Shown here: positions 8,006-23,345 of the stretch, piece after piece | Layout of the letters: every line of letters starts with the position of its first letter | Position numbering within the stretch: position 1 is the first letter of the stretch | Assembly (NCBI RefSeq): GCF_003086415.1 | Contig: NZ_QEFP02000014.1 | Location: 1 to 32,000 of the forward strand | Length of the DNA stretch: 32,000 bases | Source: Candidatus Nanobsidianus stetteri | Lineage (GTDB): Archaea; Nanobdellota; Nanobdellia; Nanobdellales; Nanobdellaceae | Direction: 5' to 3' | Notes under the pieces: generated by a model | Database searches by the model: none | The model's input: the letters and a program-made list of their open reading frames with translations, nothing else | What the model was told of the DNA's origin: nothing | Made by a program: the position numbers and the translations under genes

Positions 8006-8089
8006 TGCGGCGGAGGGGATTTGAACCCCTGGCGGATCTTATCCAATCGGACCTAAACCGACCCCCTTTGACCTCTCGGGCACCGCCGC
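8006..8089 (-). tRNA. tRNA-Leu (anticodon UAG), class II with a long variable arm
   Basis: The reverse complement reads GCGGCGG-TG-CCC..GGG-G-GTCGG-TTTAGGT-CCGAT-TGGATAAGATCCGCC-AGGGG-TTCAAAT-CCCCT-CCGCCGC-A. The anticodon loop TTTAGGT gives anticodon TAG. No CCA is encoded. Confidence 0.88.
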
Positions 8090-14820: not shown

Positions 14821-15417
14821 ATGGATGAATTTAATAAATTAAAAATATATCATATGAAAAAACTTGAGGAAGCTAAGGAAAAATATTTAGCAGATCAACC
14901 TATATATTATATTCTAGATCTTATTAATTCATTAGATTTCTTTTTTACAACATCTTCATGTGCAGGTAGGATAATTTTATTAAAAATACCAAAAAGTGGG
15001 AAAAAATTTGAGGCCGAATTTCTATTTAAATCCCATTATTATGTAAATTTTTATTATATATGGAATAAATTATTAGAAGTATATAAAAATTATGATGAGA
15101 AAATATACTTTAAACAAGAACCATTTATTTTGCATGTATCTTCAAAAAATATAGAAAGGGCATATGAACTATTAAATATTGCAAGAAAATCCGGATTCAA
15201 ACATTCTGGAATATTTTTGATAAATGATAAAAGGGTAATGGTTGAAATTGTTGGAAATGAAAAAATTGAAACAATTGTATCAAAAAATAGAAAATTATTG
15301 GTAGATAAAGAATATTTTTATAATTTAGTAAAAGAGGCAAATGAGAAGTTAAAGAATGTAAGAAAAAGAATAAATATATTTTATAAAAATCTTCTATCCT
15401 ATTATATAACAAAATGA
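14821..15417 (+). CDS. taw3: tRNA wybutosine-synthesizing protein 3 (Taw3/TYW3 family)
   Basis: 'FFFTTSSCAGRIILL' (the SSC-x-GRI motif), 'EPFILHVS' and 'ARKSGFKHSGI' fit the TYW3 family. Confidence 0.8.
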   Translation: MDEFNKLKIYHMKKLEEAKEKYLADQPIYYILDLINSLDFFFTTSSCAGRIILLKIPKSGKKFEAEFLFKSHYYVNFYYIWNKLLEVYKNYDEKIYFKQEPFILHVSSKNIERAYELLNIARKSGFKHSGIFLINDKRVMVEIVGNEKIETIVSKNRKLLVDKEYFYNLVKEANEKLKNVRKRINIFYKNLLSYYITK

Positions 15418-16887
15418 ATTATCACAATAATTATTCATTGTTTCATTATTTATTCCTACAAATTCATATAAATAATAATTGTATGTAAATTGATTATTTA
15501 TATTTAATTCTGAAACATTACATGTAGCATTAAAGTAATAATTTCCATTATTATTATAACATTCAGATATGGTTGTACATAAATTTGATAAATAACTTTC
15601 CAATGAATTTTGTGAATTTGAACAGTCAGAAGAATTTTTGTACGGACCAAATTGCAATGTTTCATTATTTATAGAGCAACTTACATTATTATAATTTATC
15701 TGAATATCTACAGGTATTAAAGCTGGATAATATCCATCAGTATAATATGCATAATTTTCTAAAATATTTTCTACAAAACTTGTACTAACTTCTACATTTT
15801 TTTCATTAATAATATTTACACCAGTTATATTATACCAATATCCATTGAATATGTTGATTTTATTCAATACTTGATAATTTAACTTTGATAAAATGGCACT
15901 TACATTATTTAAACATTCCTTCATATATTCACTATATATACTATTTACTATACATTGATTATTTACAATCTGCCCAATTGATTCACATGGTATTACGATT
16001 GTTACATTTGTAATATTTGGATCTTCTACTGGCAAAAGTTGAGATGTATATAGATCTAAAACATAATAATACGGATTATTGAATGAAAAATTTAAATATA
16101 AATTATCTCCGATTGTTTCTTCAGAATATGCACTTTGATATAAATCTATATAATTTGATTGATTTATTAAATTGTTATATATAAATTGAAATGTTTGATT
16201 ATATAAATAATCTATTAATTCATTATAATATAATAAAAAGGGATATATTGAATAACCTATTTGATTATTTAATTCAGGGAAAGTTAAACTTCTTTCATAT
16301 TTATTTAATACAAAGAAATAATATTGTGGATTTGATAATACAAAATTATTAGAACCATCATAATAGAAATCCTGATATGAAAAATTTGCATGTTTAAAAT
16401 TTAAATTTCCATTTAAATATCCGATTTCATTGTTTAAATCTTGACTTACAATGTTTTTAATACTAAAAAATATATTTTCAATATTTTGATAGTTGTTTAC
16501 ATTATTTAAAGGAATTACTGGGACACATAATGAATAAATTATGTTATAATTATTTCCATTATCTTCTATATTGGTTAGATTAAATAAAAAAGGAACTTCA
16601 CATTGAGAATAATAATTTGGAATATTATTTCCAAATATATAATTTATATTATATGTAGATCCTTTAAAAATATTTGTAAAAAGATTATTTAATAAATTAT
16701 ATCTAATATCAAATGGTATATAAACAAATAATATATATAAAAATCCCTGATATGCAATATAATCTTCACTTAAATATTTTAAAGATTGAGTTGCAATTTG
16801 AATCTGGGAATTTAAATAAAATATACCAAAGAGAACTAAAATTATTACTCCTAAGAATAATGCTACTGGTGCTAAAGATGTTTTCAT
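15394..16887 (-). CDS. Surface-locus protein, 497 aa, N-terminal TM anchor, Cys-rich and sequon-rich ectodomain (unknown family)
   Basis: TM 'APVALFLGVIILVLFGIFYL'. I count 12 Cys and many N-x-S/T sequons. It is the last gene of the minus-strand run. Confidence 0.75.
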   Translation of the reverse strand: MKTSLAPVALFLGVIILVLFGIFYLNSQIQIATQSLKYLSEDYIAYQGFLYILFVYIPFDIRYNLLNNLFTNIFKGSTYNINYIFGNNIPNYYSQCEVPFLFNLTNIEDNGNNYNIIYSLCVPVIPLNNVNNYQNIENIFFSIKNIVSQDLNNEIGYLNGNLNFKHANFSYQDFYYDGSNNFVLSNPQYYFFVLNKYERSLTFPELNNQIGYSIYPFLLYYNELIDYLYNQTFQFIYNNLINQSNYIDLYQSAYSEETIGDNLYLNFSFNNPYYYVLDLYTSQLLPVEDPNITNVTIVIPCESIGQIVNNQCIVNSIYSEYMKECLNNVSAILSKLNYQVLNKINIFNGYWYNITGVNIINEKNVEVSTSFVENILENYAYYTDGYYPALIPVDIQINYNNVSCSINNETLQFGPYKNSSDCSNSQNSLESYLSNLCTTISECYNNNGNYYFNATCNVSELNINNQFTYNYYLYEFVGINNETMNNYCDNSFCYIIG

Positions 16888-16918
16888 ATAAATTCAATAA
16901 ATTTTAAAATTATTAACT

Positions 16919-17398
16919 TTAAGTTGAATAACCACTAGTATAATTTACATAAAAGTTATATAATACTGTTGGTGGACAAACATAGAATGTATATGATTCA
17001 CCATTTAAATAAACATAATAATTTATATATTCTTTATTTGGACATGCACCAATGATTGTATTATTATTAAAATAGAATGATAAAATTGTAGCGGAATCAT
17101 TTAAATAATATAACTCTTCATTTGCCAATTCATTTATTATATAATTATCCAATGCTGTATTATTATAAAATCCTGCGTATATATCTATTACAGGTACAGT
17201 TACATTATCAAAATAAATTAAAGAATCTAAAAAACCATTTGCAGATTTATATTCAATACCAACAGCATTTAAACCTGCAATATTATTTAGTGTTGGATTT
17301 CCATAGGAAAATATATTAAAGATAAATATAAATAGTAGAACTATAACAATAATTACTGCAGCAATAAATGATAAAAAGAATCCAATTTGTATTTTCAT
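16919..17398 (-). CDS. Surface-locus protein, 159 aa, N-terminal TM anchor (unknown family)
   Basis: TM 'IGFFLSFIAAVIIVIVLLFIFIF' followed by an Asn/Tyr-rich ectodomain with 2 Cys. Its start overlaps the upstream stop by 4 nt. Confidence 0.7.
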   Translation of the reverse strand: MKIQIGFFLSFIAAVIIVIVLLFIFIFNIFSYGNPTLNNIAGLNAVGIEYKSANGFLDSLIYFDNVTVPVIDIYAGFYNNTALDNYIINELANEELYYLNDSATILSFYFNNNTIIGACPNKEYINYYVYLNGESYTFYVCPPTVLYNFYVNYTSGYST

Positions 17399-18243
17399 TG
17401 TATTTGAGTAATTTTACATGAAGATATATTTATTTGGCCTCCAGCAATTATATTACATGTTTCATTATATATTCCATTCATATAAAGATTTCCTACACCG
17501 TATAAAGATACTATTACTGGTTCTCCACTATCATATTCTGGTAAAGTAATATAATATGATGCTATTGGTTGAATATATACTTCAGTATAATATACAGTTC
17601 CATAAGTTGCAGTAGAATTGAGTATTTCAGTATTATTTATAAATTGATAGTTTTGATACATATATTCTGTCTCATTATATATATATAAACTATAATTATA
17701 GAAATAATTGATTAAAAATTGGTTTAAAGATGGTAGATTTTCGTATGTGTAATCTACATTATAAATATTATATGCAACATAATATGGATTAACATTTATA
17801 TCATTTTCAAAACTAAGGTTATATGGATCATATGAATATGAATTACTTATATTGTTAATATCATAGAAAAAGAAGTATATATAATCGTCATAAGAGAAAT
17901 TTAAATATGTATATATAACTTCATTTGATTGATTTGATTCATTAGTAAAATAATCTAATGTTCCTGAGATATTCATAAAGCATTGTTGATATACATTATT
18001 ATATTCATTGATAATATTTGGATTGGGAGCATAAAATAATAATAATGGATTTCCTGTATCTTCATATAAACAATAATTTAATCTATCAATTAATAAACTA
18101 TTTGTAAATTGCTGATATGTATATTCAGAATACGATTCAATATTAAATAATGCATATAATATTGCTACAATAAAAAATGCGAATATTATAACAACCGCAG
18201 CAGCAATATATTCAATTATATCTTTTAAAGATAATGATCTCAT
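17395..18243 (-). CDS. Surface-locus protein, 282 aa, N-terminal TM anchor (unknown family)
   Basis: N-terminus 'MRSLSLKDIIEYIAAAVVIIFAFFIVAILY' followed by an Asn/Tyr-rich, sequon-rich ectodomain. It has 4-nt overlaps at both ends. Confidence 0.7.
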   Translation of the reverse strand: MRSLSLKDIIEYIAAAVVIIFAFFIVAILYALFNIESYSEYTYQQFTNSLLIDRLNYCLYEDTGNPLLLFYAPNPNIINEYNNVYQQCFMNISGTLDYFTNESNQSNEVIYTYLNFSYDDYIYFFFYDINNISNSYSYDPYNLSFENDINVNPYYVAYNIYNVDYTYENLPSLNQFLINYFYNYSLYIYNETEYMYQNYQFINNTEILNSTATYGTVYYTEVYIQPIASYYITLPEYDSGEPVIVSLYGVGNLYMNGIYNETCNIIAGGQINISSCKITQIQ

Positions 18244-19352
18244 GATGTAGAAGATAATACTGATACATTTAAATATGGTTGGCCTCCAGATTGTACACCC
18301 ACCTTTGATAAAATAATAAACTCTGGAAATACTTGATTACCATTATTATCTACATTTCCTAAATCTAGTTTGAATATATTATCCTGTGAATTATCTTGTG
18401 AATTATAAATGTATGTAAAACTTGTATCACATAAATAATTATTACTACATCCATTATAAAATGTAAACTCGGGATTATAATATATTGACAATGTTAAATA
18501 TGGTTGATATACTGTATATTTTCCATTTGGAATTGACAAAAAGAGCCAATTAGTGCTTTGTTGTATAAATTGATTATAATAGCAACTTGCATATGGACTC
18601 GATGTAGCTTGCCAATATTGATATAAGGTAATTGATGCAGTAAATGCTAAATTAAATGCAAAACCAGCTACAAAATCAGCTGGAGGTGGTAAAACTTCAT
18701 CTAATATCATATCTCCAACCTGCATTATAGTAAATTCTGCAGTAGACCACAAGGTAGGTCCCACAGAAGATTGTAATGCATTAAATATATCTCCCCATAT
18801 GTTATAGTTTCCGGATGCATATTGTAAAAGTGTAGATTGATATGTATATAATCCATATGTACCAGCAGCAGCTATTGCTGTTTGTTTTGCAATTTGAGAT
18901 GAAGATCCAAATACTTTATTTAAAGCATTTAGTAAAGATGTTGTTTTACCACCATACTTTAATCCTGGCAGATATGAAAATACTTCAGCCATAAAAGAAT
19001 TTAATGCATCATCTGCAAGTTGTTGCCATAGATCATTTACATAACATTCTCCAATACTAACTAAAAAATCATTATTATTATATAAAGGAATAAATAGGGC
19101 GGATGATTGTATTGGAGGAATTATCCTAAATTCATAGAAAAATACTGGAGCATTTGTTACAAAAAATGCTGCTGTCATATTCCCAGGTTCTGATGTTGAA
19201 TATGTAATAAAACCAGCAACTTCCAATATTAAATAAGGATTATGTGTACCAAATATTCTTGCAATAATATATGGAAAATATATTCCTATTAGTGATACAA
19301 TTATTAAAAATATTGATGCTATTATTGCATCTAATAATTCATCAACATCCAT
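18240..19352 (-). CDS. Surface-locus protein, 370 aa, N-terminal TM plus an Ala/Gly/Ser-rich helical-looking middle region (unknown family)
   Basis: N-terminus 'MDVDELLDAIIASIFLIIVSLIGIYF'. The middle region ('QIAKQTAIAAAGTYGLYTY', 'DFVAGFAFNLAFTASITLY') differs in composition from its Asn-rich neighbours. Confidence 0.7.
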   Translation of the reverse strand: MDVDELLDAIIASIFLIIVSLIGIYFPYIIARIFGTHNPYLILEVAGFITYSTSEPGNMTAAFFVTNAPVFFYEFRIIPPIQSSALFIPLYNNNDFLVSIGECYVNDLWQQLADDALNSFMAEVFSYLPGLKYGGKTTSLLNALNKVFGSSSQIAKQTAIAAAGTYGLYTYQSTLLQYASGNYNIWGDIFNALQSSVGPTLWSTAEFTIMQVGDMILDEVLPPPADFVAGFAFNLAFTASITLYQYWQATSSPYASCYYNQFIQQSTNWLFLSIPNGKYTVYQPYLTLSIYYNPEFTFYNGCSNNYLCDTSFTYIYNSQDNSQDNIFKLDLGNVDNNGNQVFPEFIILSKVGVQSGGQPYLNVSVLSSTS

Positions 19353-19353
19353 A

Positions 19354-20295
19354 TTATGTAGAAACAGTTTCTCCTATGTATATATTAATATTTGCTGTAT
19401 TTCCGTTACTATTTACCTCTATATCCATTACTGTTGGTGGTAAAGAACCTGCAAAATATAATAATGGAAAGTTTATTTGGAAGTATTGGATAATATAAGT
19501 AAATGTTTCAGAACTTACAATTTCACCTTCAAGATTACTAAGCTGTATTTGAGGATTCTCTGGAAATCCTGACAATTCTACACATACTGATGGATTATAT
19601 GGCAAATTATTGTTATTTGAATTTATATTTGAACTTGGAGCACAAGATATAGAGCCACTTTCTTGATATGTATTACCATTTTCATCAATTGTTGATGTAA
19701 ATGTGCATCCATTATCATTACATGTTATTGTTGTATCATTTACTATAGTAAGAAAGAATGAAGAGGATTCTGGAAAGAAATAATCTATTATATTTACAAA
19801 AATTTGGAGACCACCTAAGTTCTTATTATTAGTAGAATATGCTAATAAACCAGCATTATCATTTAATCCTTGTATGTTTATATTTATTTGATTTATATTA
19901 CTATTTAAGGATATTTGTTTTACTAATTTACAAAATACTAATGCTGGTGCAAATATAATAGTATTTCCATTATCTGTCGTAGAAACATTCCAATATACTA
20001 CTTTAACGGATAAGAGACCTACAACCTGATTTGGAGGAAAACAATGATATAATTGCAAATACCATCCATTATTGTTTGTCAATACAAAAACATAATTATA
20101 GTCATAATTATTTATAAATACTTCTCCATTACCTCCATTATTTATATCATTAGCAATTGAATTTAAATATCCAATATATTTTGCATCATTTCCCATAGCA
20201 ACTCCAATAAATGTCACAATAATAAAGTATATTAAAACTACCAATACAATTAATACTATTATATCAAAAATTATTCTAAGAAAATCTCCTCTCAT
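19354..20295 (-). CDS. Surface-locus protein, 313 aa, N-terminal TM anchor (unknown family)
   Basis: N-terminus 'MRGDFLRIIFDIIVLIVLVVLIYFIIVTFIGV' followed by an Asn-rich ectodomain with Cys pairs. A 1-nt gap separates it from the genes on each side. Confidence 0.7.
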   Translation of the reverse strand: MRGDFLRIIFDIIVLIVLVVLIYFIIVTFIGVAMGNDAKYIGYLNSIANDINNGGNGEVFINNYDYNYVFVLTNNNGWYLQLYHCFPPNQVVGLLSVKVVYWNVSTTDNGNTIIFAPALVFCKLVKQISLNSNINQININIQGLNDNAGLLAYSTNNKNLGGLQIFVNIIDYFFPESSSFFLTIVNDTTITCNDNGCTFTSTIDENGNTYQESGSISCAPSSNINSNNNNLPYNPSVCVELSGFPENPQIQLSNLEGEIVSSETFTYIIQYFQINFPLLYFAGSLPPTVMDIEVNSNGNTANINIYIGETVST

Positions 20296-20296
20296 A

Positions 20297-20458
20297 TTAT
20301 CCTAATCCAGATTGATTTAATATTTTATATCCTACGCTTGTTACATTTGTCTGTATGGAGTTACTTGCTATGTAATAATAAAATATTATAGCTAAAATAA
20401 TTATTACTATTGCAATAATTAAAAATATTAAAAAGTTTATTGAATTATCAGCCTCCAT
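20297..20458 (-). CDS. Mini membrane protein, 53 aa (absent from the ORF track)
   Basis: My manual translation: MEADNSINFLIFLIIAIVIIILAIIFYYYIASNSIQTNVTSVGYKILNQSGLG*. Its ATG overlaps the upstream gene's stop by 11 nt (tATGGAGGCTGA). The TAA stop ends 1 nt before the next gene's start. Confidence 0.6.
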   Translation of the reverse strand: MEADNSINFLIFLIIAIVIIILAIIFYYYIASNSIQTNVTSVGYKILNQSGLG

Positions 20459-20633
20459 AGTTGTTATTATTTATACTATTTACAACATTTGTGCCATTTG
20501 TTTGCGGTATACTATTAAATAAATTTGCTCCACCTTTAAAATAAAAGTACATAAATATTGCTAATAATACTAGAGCAACTATAAATAATATTATTGCTAC
20601 TAAAAATGTATTTACTTGTGTTTTTTTATCCAT
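20448..20633 (-). CDS. Mini membrane protein, 61 aa
   Basis: 'MDKKTQVNTFLVAIILFIVALVLLAIFMYFYFKGGANLFNSIPQTNGTNVVNSINNNNYGG': a short polar N-terminus, one TM and a short Asn-rich tail. Confidence 0.65.
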   Translation of the reverse strand: MDKKTQVNTFLVAIILFIVALVLLAIFMYFYFKGGANLFNSIPQTNGTNVVNSINNNNYGG

Positions 20634-20772
20634 TTCCCCCTATTAATTGATATTGAGCAAATATATTTATATTTAGCCCTAATTTTGGTCCCAATATAAC
20701 AAAAACAAATATTAATATTAATACAGTAAATATCAATGCAAGAATTATCTTTAGAAGTTCTCCAGTTTCCAT
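20626..20772 (-). CDS. Mini membrane protein, 48 aa (absent from the ORF track)
   Basis: My manual translation: METGELLKIILALIFTVLILIFVFVILGPKLGLNINIFAQYQLIGGNG*. Its stop overlaps the next ATG by 8 nt (aATGGATAA). Confidence 0.55.
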   Translation of the reverse strand: METGELLKIILALIFTVLILIFVFVILGPKLGLNINIFAQYQLIGGNG

Positions 20773-20802
20773 TATAAATCTAAAAACTTTGCAATTTATA
20801 AA

Positions 20803-22074
20803 TTAACTTCCACCTGAACTTGAACTTGAACCTGAAATCGATGTTAATAGAATTGCCCTATTTCCCCCTTCATATGTATATTCAATTATTATGCCATTTG
20901 GTAATTGCATATTAGCTGGAATAATTATAACTTGATTCGGTGGAAAATTATTTGAAGTGGACCAGTTTTCATCAACATTACCATTTTGACCTACTTCATA
21001 TGAATTTACTAATAATTTATTATATACATTTGAATCTTGAGGATTTGAAGACATTACACTAGGATCTCTATTACTTAAAACCTGACAAGCAATATTGAAA
21101 TTACTATTATATATCACATTATCTCCATACATAACTTCTAATGGAACCTGATTATAATATTCCATCATATCTAACATACATAAAACATCATTTAATGTAA
21201 CTATATAGTTACTGTTATAGTCAAATAATAATAGGGCATATTCATTATGATTACCTGCTATAGTTACACTTTGTCCTAATGTTTCTCCATATGTATAAAA
21301 TAAATATTTTGCAATTAAATATGTTGCATATAAATTTTGACATTCCGATGATGTTGGATCACTACAATATCCTTGTTGTTCTATATAATTTGCATATGAT
21401 TGATTTAAATCGTTAAGCATTTCATTTACTTGAGCGTTACCAATATTGCTTAAATTCACAGCTACTACGCCTTCTGGAACTAAATAATATAAAATTGGGT
21501 CTTGTATCGCATGTGCCATATTATTTAAGGCATATGATAAAGCATCTAAGCCAAGTGTTCCAAATAATAAACCCGCACCTAAAGGATTTGTAAATACTTT
21601 TTTATATGCATTTCCAATACCAGATGCTATTTTATCTTTTGGAAAACCTCCATTCTCAATATCTTCAAATAGTAGATATTTCTTATTTATATTCTGTATA
21701 GTTTCTTCATCATATCCTATACTCTCCAAAAACTCTACATTCTCATCATAATTTGCCTTAATTCCAGAAACAATACCAGCAACGGTTGTAGCAATAAAAA
21801 CTCCTAATAATACATCATTTGCAATTGTTGCAGCATCAGATATTCCCTGTGCTACTGGATTTATAGTAAAACTTATACTTCCTGCTAATGCATATCCAAA
21901 TTTTGCTTCTGGTCTACCAGCATAACTAAGACCTTTTAATACATTGAAGAAAACTATTATTACAAATATTATAATAATAATTACAATAATAAGTTCTATT
22001 ACACTATCACTTATAGATTTCATATCATTTATAAAAACCTTGGATTTTATTAATTTTTTATAATGAATTTTCAA
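20803..22074 (-). CDS. Surface-locus membrane protein (unknown family), first gene of the minus-strand run
   Basis: The likely true start is the ATG at 22023 ('MKSISDSVIELIIVIIIIIFVIIVFFNVL'). The 51 nt upstream read 'cattataaaaaattaataaaatccaaggtttttataaatgat', which looks like a promoter. Further hydrophobic segments ('VLLGVFIATTVAGIVSGI', 'LGAGLLFGTLGL') are followed by an ectodomain and a Ser/Gly tail. Confidence 0.7.
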   Translation of the reverse strand: MKIHYKKLIKSKVFINDMKSISDSVIELIIVIIIIIFVIIVFFNVLKGLSYAGRPEAKFGYALAGSISFTINPVAQGISDAATIANDVLLGVFIATTVAGIVSGIKANYDENVEFLESIGYDEETIQNINKKYLLFEDIENGGFPKDKIASGIGNAYKKVFTNPLGAGLLFGTLGLDALSYALNNMAHAIQDPILYYLVPEGVVAVNLSNIGNAQVNEMLNDLNQSYANYIEQQGYCSDPTSSECQNLYATYLIAKYLFYTYGETLGQSVTIAGNHNEYALLLFDYNSNYIVTLNDVLCMLDMMEYYNQVPLEVMYGDNVIYNSNFNIACQVLSNRDPSVMSSNPQDSNVYNKLLVNSYEVGQNGNVDENWSTSNNFPPNQVIIIPANMQLPNGIIIEYTYEGGNRAILLTSISGSSSSSGGS

Positions 22075-22115: not shown

Positions 22116-23345
22116 ATGAAAGATAAAATTAAGGCAATAGTTATATTTTTTATATTATCTTTGATAATGTTGAGTACAAAAATTATGGCACAAACAAATT
22201 TAAATGGCCAACAATATACAAATACATCAATTATAATAATAACTAATAATAGTCGTTTTGGCTATGGGTTTTCAATAACTGGTTATAATGGTCTTGTTTA
22301 TATTTATTATACAGAATTGCAATCATCAATTGCAACTATTAATGGTTTGATATTTAATGGAACTGAAGAAATGAATGCGCCTTTACCAAATTTCAATGAT
22401 TTAGGAGAAGGAAGTCCATTATTAGTTGAATTAAATAATGGATCATTAATGTTGTTATGGGGTGGTGTGCCAATGGGAAATTATAGTTTAAATAATTTAA
22501 CAATTCTTCTTCAAGCTTCAATATTAAATAATAATGTTTGGGGACCTGTTATTAATTTAACAAACAATGGTGATGCATTAAGTTATTATAGTGATGGAAA
22601 TTATATATATTTAGTTTATGAACCTACATTATCCCTTACATATAATAATACAATACTTGAAGAATTAACACTTTCAGGCAATGTTGTTAAATCTTTAAAT
22701 ATTCCGGGTATTGTTGGTATTGTTTCTGCAAATAATGGTTATGCTATTGTTCAATTTGTAAATAGTACTTATGCTTTAATAAACATAAACAATGGAAGTA
22801 TCGAATTTGTAAATGCAACAATTATTGGTTTTATTGGTAATTCTTTATATCAATTTTATAATGGAGTATTAACAATTAATCAAAATTTAACATTTAATTT
22901 GCCAATATATGAAAGTGCATTTCCGATATCATGGAATAATGGATATGTTATAATTGCATGGAGACCTGGTTTATTAAGTGTATACTATTGGAATGGTACA
23001 GAATTACAGCCAGTTGTTAATTATACAGTTCAATTTACAATAATTCCAAGAGCGACAATTTTGAATAATAATCTTTATTTAGCATGGTTTGGATTAAATA
23101 ATATTTCAACGAGTCAAGGTTCAATATATATGGCAATAACACCATTACCTTATCAAATAAATCAATATAATAATATAACAACAACTAATAGTACTATAAA
23201 TAATACTTCTACAATATCAACTTCTAATACTTCCTCATATAATTCAATACAAAATACTACATCGAATAAATCTTTATTTAGTTCAATACCAATTTGGGTT
23301 ATTATAATAGTAGTTGGTATTGTTGTATTTTTTATTTTATATTAG
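22116..23345 (+). CDS. Secreted protein with about seven repeated beta-blade-like units, a Ser/Thr/Asn-rich stalk and a C-terminal TM anchor (unknown family)
   Basis: Signal peptide 'AIVIFFILSLIMLSTKIMAQ'. Motifs recur at about 40-50 aa spacing: 'GYNGLVYIYYTE', 'NNGSLMLLWGG', 'DGNYIYLVYEP', 'NNGYAIVQFVN', 'GNSLYQFYNG', 'NNGYVIIAWRPG', 'NNNLYLAWFG'. The linker is 'TTTNSTINNTSTISTSNTSS' and the C-terminal TM is 'IPIWVIIIVVGIVVFFILY'. Confidence 0.75.
   Translation: MKDKIKAIVIFFILSLIMLSTKIMAQTNLNGQQYTNTSIIIITNNSRFGYGFSITGYNGLVYIYYTELQSSIATINGLIFNGTEEMNAPLPNFNDLGEGSPLLVELNNGSLMLLWGGVPMGNYSLNNLTILLQASILNNNVWGPVINLTNNGDALSYYSDGNYIYLVYEPTLSLTYNNTILEELTLSGNVVKSLNIPGIVGIVSANNGYAIVQFVNSTYALININNGSIEFVNATIIGFIGNSLYQFYNGVLTINQNLTFNLPIYESAFPISWNNGYVIIAWRPGLLSVYYWNGTELQPVVNYTVQFTIIPRATILNNNLYLAWFGLNNISTSQGSIYMAITPLPYQINQYNNITTTNSTINNTSTISTSNTSSYNSIQNTTSNKSLFSSIPIWVIIIVVGIVVFFILY

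Follow-up and report, generated by a model that had tools for sequence, protein, structure and literature searches.

Archaeal type IV pilins with class III signal peptides, among them EpdE (MMP1685), the very short and glycosylated major pilin of Methanococcus maripaludis, are small proteins built up from one N-terminal helix and a short tail, which occur clustered with other proteins beginning with such a helix and whose genes can be unlinked to those of the assembly machinery. The Flp pilins of the bacterial Tad systems, ~45–60 amino acids (aa) in length, are mostly helical products of tandem paralogous genes, exhibit a G/xxxxEY processing motif, and are encoded together with tadV and tadABC. 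Another mode of action is represented by FlaF and FlaG of the archaellum and by the bacterial PilN and PilO, in which an uncleaved N-terminal helix holds the protein in the membrane beside a surface structure. The present analysis compares with these systems three short overlapping open reading frames (ORFs), m48, m61 and m53, which occupy positions 20297–20772 on the minus strand of a 32,000-nucleotide (nt) stretch of archaeal DNA of ~24% G+C, hereafter the window, from Candidatus Nanobsidianus stetteri (Nanoarchaeota, Nanopusillaceae), to which exact protein matches assign it. The three ORFs are real protein-coding genes and, with a probability of roughly one half, their products are conserved membrane-resident subunits which serve as anchors or organisers of a surface assembly that is specific to the lineage, probably faces the host and is made of the co-encoded proteins.

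The mini-proteins resemble these archaeal pilins by their small size, their single N-terminal helix and their short tail (the glycosylation of the tail being a prediction here), and by their location in a cluster of other N-terminal-helix proteins. They differ in the lack of a conserved site with a basic residue at position -2 and a small residue at position -1, and of any Pilin_N or QxSxExxxL (DUF361) signature. With the Flp pilins they share the length, a largely helical fold and the tandem arrangement of paralogous genes, but the [GAS]x4[DE] motif is found in 0 of 10 orthologs and no Tad genes are adjacent. FlaF/FlaG and PilN/PilO match the working mode proposed below for the mini-proteins, although they possess folded domains of 100–200 residues outside the membrane as compared with ~20–30 residues in the mini-proteins, and no sequence relation to them was found in Pfam, NCBIfam or PDB-sequence profiles. 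A further point of comparison is offered by the "hypothetical external" proteins of nanoarchaea, which carry one N-terminal helix and show the highest densities of non-synonymous single-nucleotide polymorphisms (Jarett et al. 2018). They occur in the same organisms and possess, like the mini-proteins, one transmembrane (TM) helix near the N-terminus. The large proteins of the cluster, likewise fast-evolving with a high ratio of non-synonymous to synonymous substitution rates (dN/dS), fit this class, whereas the mini-proteins represent its slow-evolving exception (dN/dS ~0.23), have almost no ectodomain and form the conserved rather than the variable part.

Three mini-genes kept intact under purifying selection

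The ORFs m48 (20626–20772; 48 aa), m61 (20448–20633; 61 aa) and m53 (20297–20458; 53 aa) all start with ATG, and their positions, lengths and translations, as proposed in an earlier note on this DNA, were confirmed by the listing of ORFs. The overlap amounts to 8 nt between the end of m48 and the start of m61 and to 11 nt between the end of m61 and the start of m53, as expected from the statement of that note that each ATG is embedded in the preceding gene; the statement does not extend to m48, whose ATG is located 30 nt downstream of the stop codon of the preceding gene, p406. The three frames are intact, overlapping and in the same order in eight other species-level genomes of the Nanopusillaceae (nine compared, including the window). 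They include Nanopusillus acidilobi 7A, which is in culture, Nst1, and a divergent member of the family represented by a metagenome-assembled genome (MAG; L012), in which the three mini-proteins consist of 44, 64 and 53 aa. When an m48 profile was run with HMMER against the full set of 1.84 billion representative proteins, only five were returned, all of them relatives of 26–44 aa, one of which led to a further lineage of 26% G+C with the same three frames intact. The order of genes in this lineage is a p406 homolog, the three mini-genes of 44, 56 (with a GTG start) and 62 aa, an inserted gene of 355 aa, and a homolog of p313, the gene that directly follows m53 in the window. In addition, a metagenome scan yielded 50 further contigs, and all 38 of those that span the region carry three intact ORFs. 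Gene overlaps of 4–11 nt are kept in every lineage, and homolog searches with m61, m48 and p313 gave matches in the Nanopusillaceae only.

Selection acts on the encoded amino acids. The dN/dS values calculated according to Nei and Gojobori are 0.22 for m48, 0.23 for m61 and 0.24 for m53, as against 0.54, 0.62 and 0.52 for the flanking large genes (0.62 being that of p313). The conservation of the frames, proposed by the earlier note as a check together with a dN/dS below 1, is borne out by the absence of any broken frame in ~50 loci and by values close to 0.23. When the window is compared with the divergent MAG, identity is 62–66% for the mini-proteins and 29–37% for their large neighbours. 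Moreover, the pooled ratio of non-synonymous to synonymous polymorphism (pN/pS) is lowest in the annotated frame of each gene (0.24, 0.23 and 0.31), the off-frame values ranging from 0.41 to 3.65. The likelihood of encountering such ORFs by chance was evaluated with a 2-Mb first-order Markov simulation of the 24%-GC sequence, which produced 659 ATG-initiated ORFs of at least 45 aa, none of them with a 19-residue window that is at least 90% hydrophobic, and no tiling triple. In the six frames of the whole window, the only ORFs of 30–95 aa with such a helix are m48, m61, m53 and a fourth mini-gene, m62 (27267–27455, minus strand; 62 aa), and all four are located outside larger genes.

The NCBI annotation of this genome includes the three genes, each as coding for a hypothetical protein (MCC5447200, MCC5447199 and MCC5447198). 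The counterpart of m48 in Nst1 is Nst1_040. The gene table published for N. acidilobi in 2016 lists orthologs of Nst1_039, Nst1_041 and Nst1_043 and none for Nst1_040 and Nst1_042, so that the m48 and m53 homologs apparently were left unannotated there; both homologous ORFs, of 48 and 52 aa, are nevertheless intact in the N. acidilobi sequence CP010514. The suggestion that such genes go missing from ORF tracks and are overlooked by length-filtered annotation agrees with a 60-aa filter and with the content of this table. If the table on which the only published Nanopusillus proteome relies did lack two of the three genes, their products were undetectable in that study.

Architecture and paralogy of the mini-proteins

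The design common to the mini-proteins comprises 7–9 polar residues, a hydrophobic segment of ~19–23 residues and a tail of 20–30 residues. The hydrophobic segments extend over residues 9–27 in m48, 10–28 in m61 and 9–27 in m53, which corresponds to exactly one N-terminal TM helix in each, m61 and m53 being single-pass proteins. These data support the description of the three ORFs as genuine genes which lie inside an operon of surface proteins and code for membrane proteins with a single helix and a common design. In m48, the N-terminus METGELLKIILAL is invariant within Nanopusillus except for the replacement G4E in some variants, and an invariant GPK follows the helix. The AlphaFold2 model of m48 consists of a helix at residues 3–31, with a predicted local distance difference test score (pLDDT) that exceeds 90 in its first 20 residues, a loop after Gly-Pro-Lys, and a weak, low-confidence helix at residues 37–45. 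Distant homologs of m48 with 43–44 aa also exist. The m61 protein exhibits a basic N-flank with two to three Lys/Arg residues, an invariant core YxKGG, and an NGT sequon in the tail.

Comparisons with hhalign relate m61 to m53 with a probability of 88%, the segment NSIPQTNGTNV of one being aligned with NSIQTNVTSV of the other, and relate m62 to m53 and m61 with probabilities of 95% and 56%, respectively. For m48, which has a similar composition and served as a control in these comparisons, the probabilities against m61, m53 and m62 reach 12–24% only. Accordingly, the term paralog-like, which had been applied to the mini-proteins as a whole, is appropriate for m61, m53 and m62 (88–95%) and not for m48: the former three are paralogs and m48 is unrelated to them. 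In the 26%-GC lineage, two more overlapping mini-genes of 64 and 67 aa (locus L016, 4484–4874) adjoin the gene of alanyl-tRNA synthetase. Their N-termini, KKS-ISLSLETL and KKS-VSLTMEKL, are more similar to a class III signal than those of m48, m61 and m53, and the 64-aa protein weakly resembles m62 (BLAST E = 2e-4).

The paralogs also have in common N-glycosylation sequons located in their tails. The sequon N46-G-T of m61 occurs in 35 of 36 unique proteins, while in m53 N38-x-T is present in 39 of 39 and N48-x-S in 38 of 39; these sequons stay near-invariant while the surrounding tail residues vary. Four conserved sequons occur in m62, together with a fifth one (N4) restricted to the copy in the window. 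No glycosylation sequon is found in any of the 34 unique m48 proteins. Cells of N. acidilobi bind wheat germ agglutinin, which shows that their surface is glycosylated. Because of the basic N-flank of m61 and of the conserved sequons in the tails, m61, m53 and m62 are predicted to expose tails of ~25 residues, probably N-glycosylated, outside the cell and to keep their N-terminus inside.

Operon layout, expression signals and neighbouring proteins

The mini-genes head an operon of ~5 kb which is part of a wider cluster of ~13 kb in a genome of ~0.6 Mb, m48 being the first gene of the transcription unit. The genes of the cluster are on the minus strand unless otherwise indicated. The gene p313 (19354–20295; 313 aa) starts 1 nt after the stop codon of m53 and is followed downstream by p370, p282 (17395–18243; 282 aa), p159 and p497, which are distributed over positions 15394–19352 and each encode an N-terminal hydrophobic helix; the genes p370, p282 and p159 overlap or abut one another. 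Upstream, p406 (20803–22023), whose product also starts with a helix (MKSIS...), is conserved directly before the three mini-genes in every related locus. The 423-aa version of p406 that begins at the TTG codon at 22074, a length also found in a UniRef entry, probably extends too far; the ATG at 22023 (406 aa) is backed by the orthologs, by the NCBI record, and by a conserved A/T-rich box upstream. The fourth mini-gene, m62, indeed stands before the gene of an 879-aa protein (24631–27270), as the earlier note had reported, and overlaps it by 4 nt. Every gene of the cluster encodes an N-terminal hydrophobic helix.

The 30-nt spacer between the p406 stop codon and the m48 ATG is near-invariant in eight Nanopusillus genomes and still recognisable in the divergent MAG. 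It starts with a TATA-like box, TTTATAAATT (20793–20802), at -30 to -21 from the m48 ATG, a position at which the TATA box of an archaeal leaderless mRNA is expected; judging from this position, the box is likely the promoter of a leaderless operon transcript starting at m48. Directly before the m48 ATG lies the motif AAGTTTTTAGATTTAT (20774–20789), a 16-nt stretch which recurs in near-identical form before m62 (27456–27471), and a TATA-like box, TTTATAAT, is located at the same distance (-30) from the m62 ATG. The pattern AA[GT]TTTTTAGAT[TA]TAT has only two exact matches in the window, before m48 and before m62; since both sites served to define it, this count is circular, and what is observed is that the two sites resemble each other. 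The stretches 20773–20802 and 27456–27485 display a matching promoter-like layout, which suggests either a co-regulation of the two mini-genes or the duplication of a unit consisting of a promoter plus a mini-gene. Within the operon, a run of G (GGGGG) is located 3 nt upstream of the m61 ATG.

Among the large neighbours, p313 was modelled with AlphaFold2 from an alignment of 53 sequences (pLDDT 85.6; predicted template modelling score, pTM, 0.81) as a helix spanning residues 2–52 followed by an all-beta domain. The model found no Foldseek match in the PDB or in BFVD, and the fold of the ectodomain may be new. The p313 protein is hypervariable in hot-spring metagenomes, where it forms 120 clusters at 63–96% identity, and contains six invariant cysteines. 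Searches of the cluster proteins against Pfam, NCBIfam, PHROGs and PDB-sequence profiles gave nothing beyond scattered sub-threshold matches to unrelated membrane families. Several of the large cluster proteins begin with M-[KR]-[G/S/A], the clearest case being p282, whose orthologs all start with MR[S/A]LSLKD, i.e., a basic residue at -2 and a small residue at -1 followed by Leu-x-Leu-x-Asp, the most prepilin-like N-terminus of the cluster.

The cluster also accommodates, on the plus strand, a gene (22116–23345) whose 409-aa product carries both a signal peptide and a C-terminal anchor; this gene is not called at the equivalent place in a related Nanopusillus genome (L001/L006), and the content of the cluster therefore varies between genomes. 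The m62/879-aa pair is adjoined by the gene of a membrane protein of the disulfide-forming VKOR family (27488–28054, minus strand), which fits the conserved, even-numbered cysteines of the cluster ectodomains. The rest of the window encodes TYW3, an archaeal-type fructose-1,6-bisphosphatase, a DnaG-type primase, alanyl-tRNA synthetase and three tRNAs. A tRNA-Leu(TAG) is called by ARAGORN at 8006–8089 on the minus strand, where the Rfam tRNA model stays below its gathering score.

Membrane anchors, filament subunits or other small proteins

In the explanation favoured here, the promoter upstream of m48 would make the mini-genes the leaderless 5' end of the operon transcript, and translational coupling through the overlapping stop/start junctions would link the mini-genes with one another and with the gene that follows. 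Each product, consisting of one TM helix and a short tail, would stay in the membrane as a conserved core subunit of a surface assembly specific to the Nanopusillaceae. The mini-protein helices may pack beside the long N-terminal helices of p313, p370, p282 and p159, all of them cysteine-rich and fast-evolving, and m62 would by analogy do likewise for the 879-aa protein. In this manner, a variable and probably host-facing apparatus would be anchored or organised by the mini-proteins. Some observations weigh against this explanation. The conservation of the C-terminal parts of m48 and m61 may partly reflect constraints at the nucleotide level, as these regions overlap the signals for the start of the gene behind them. 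With an acidic N-flank and a Lys residue after the helix, m48 is ambiguous in its orientation. Finally, none of the proteins Nps_00205 to Nps_00265, which correspond to the whole cluster, was detected in the N. acidilobi proteome, of which about one third was covered.

The shortness, the AT-richness and the overlaps of the ORFs, along with the lack of any peptide from the cluster in the published N. acidilobi proteome, could also be accounted for by chance ORFs, or by upstream ORFs which matter only for downstream expression and give functionless peptides. This is effectively refuted by the selection, conservation and simulation results: only in the annotated frame are amino-acid changes held back by purifying selection, the same motifs and sequons recur without variation from lineage to lineage, and no comparable ORFs occur in the simulation or, apart from m62, elsewhere in the window, which leaves hardly any probability to such an origin. 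A second alternative considers the mini-proteins as stand-alone small membrane effectors or regulators, e.g., pore-forming or holin-like proteins or modulators of transporters or enzymes, with no functional relation to their neighbours. Single-helix micro-proteins often act in this way, and m53 and m61 display weak, sub-threshold matches to holin-like and viral membrane families; these matches are, however, spread over many unrelated families and lie far below the cut-offs, as is typical of any hydrophobic helix. A role independent of the neighbours is also difficult to reconcile with the order p406, three mini-genes and p313 homolog, which is kept with the mini-gene overlaps in the distant lineage (apart from the 355-aa insert after the third mini-gene), and with the similar coupling of the paralog m62 to another large surface protein. 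Such effectors accordingly appear improbable, though far less so than chance ORFs. 

A better, if still doubtful, case can be made for very short subunits, major or minor, of a type IV filament, which an orphan pair of secretion ATPase and TadC would extract and polymerise, the larger cluster proteins then acting as minor pilins or tip adhesins. The size and the design of the mini-proteins resemble those of short pilins; several genes for TadC/FlaJ proteins and FlaI-like ATPases are dispersed over the N. acidilobi genome; the pilin genes of archaea often lie apart from those of the machinery; the long N-terminal helix and beta domain of the p313 model correspond to the general layout of pilins; and the M-[KR]-[G/S/A] start of several large cluster proteins, p282 in the first place, points in the same direction. 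The mini-proteins themselves depart from this picture at the site of processing. Substrates of archaeal prepilin peptidases typically show a basic residue at -2 and Gly or Ala (or Ser) at -1, directly before the hydrophobic stretch (PMC3387779). When this criterion, taken from the same source for positions -2, -1 and +1, is applied in its strict form [KR][GAS], at most 1 of 10 orthologs per mini-protein family complies with it. The only Gly preceding the helix of m48 (Gly4, in METG|E) gives way to Glu in 6 of the 30 clusters of this protein, and the distant m48 homologs, which start with MNNELL or MNNTIL, are devoid of the site altogether. The basic residue at -2 is missing in both m48 and m53 (DN[SA]|IN), and m61 ([KR][TS]|[QED]) has an atypical residue at -1. 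The PilFind rule, which was trained on bacterial pilins and looks within the first 35 residues for [GAS]-x4-[DE] followed by 14 uncharged residues (PMC3244431), selects 0 of 10 orthologs in each of the three mini-protein families. 

Profile searches and the genomic context add to these departures. A weak match to Pilin_N, obtained for m53 in only one of nine orthologs (E = 0.07), is attributable to chance; no other pilin or signal-peptide family was reported from Pfam, and none was returned by NCBIfam or by PDB-sequence profiles; and the p313 model has no counterpart among the solved pilins and archaellins. No gene for a secretion ATPase, a TadC/FlaJ protein or a prepilin peptidase occurs in the window or in the related loci (up to ~16 kb of gene calls), which is weak evidence since pilin genes are often unlinked. 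The tight translational coupling, in turn, would suggest matched amounts of the products rather than the large excess required of a major pilin. The idea of filament subunits put forward by the earlier note consequently fails the available sequence tests (cleavage site, PilFind rule, Pilin_N and nearby machinery), and the membrane-embedded assembly or anchor factors which that note also envisaged appear to fit the evidence better; the lack of a conserved cleavage site argues against cleavage and export of the mini-proteins. In a broader form of the filament proposal, the mini-proteins and their cluster would be the missing structural subunits of a nanoarchaeal type IV-like or new filament, or of an attachment apparatus contacting the crenarchaeal host, with an unconventional targeting signal, either uncleaved or reduced to a three-residue leader; it is unlikely, to the same degree as the short pilins themselves. 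The remaining probability belongs to functions other than those named.

Other identities were tried and set aside. The VirB2/CedA1-type conjugative pilins consist of a hairpin of two hydrophobic helices. Each mini-protein possesses one hydrophobic segment, and the second helix of the m48 model (residues 37–45) is short and of low confidence. For phage holins, the match to TIGR01673 (E = 0.036) scores 14.5 bits where the cut-off is 34.75, and the PHROGs matches, with E values of at least 0.005, concern families of uncharacterised function. All nine close orthologs of m48 match DUF7554 (PF24431; best E = 8e-5), but the one score listed, 17.7 bits, lies below the curated 25-bit cut-off, and none of four distant homologs matches; the match is probably driven by the N-terminal helix alone. 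No mention of DUF7554 was found in the literature.

Nanoarchaeota live attached to their host cell, from which they take most of their metabolites, and the proteins responsible for this contact are not known. In this respect, the cluster headed by m48, m61 and m53 associates a slowly evolving membrane core with hypervariable ectodomains, an association which makes it a concrete candidate for a part of the host-contact apparatus, or for pilins which previous censuses have missed. Should the mini-proteins prove to be short pilins, they would fill a recognised gap in the biology of the nanoarchaea.

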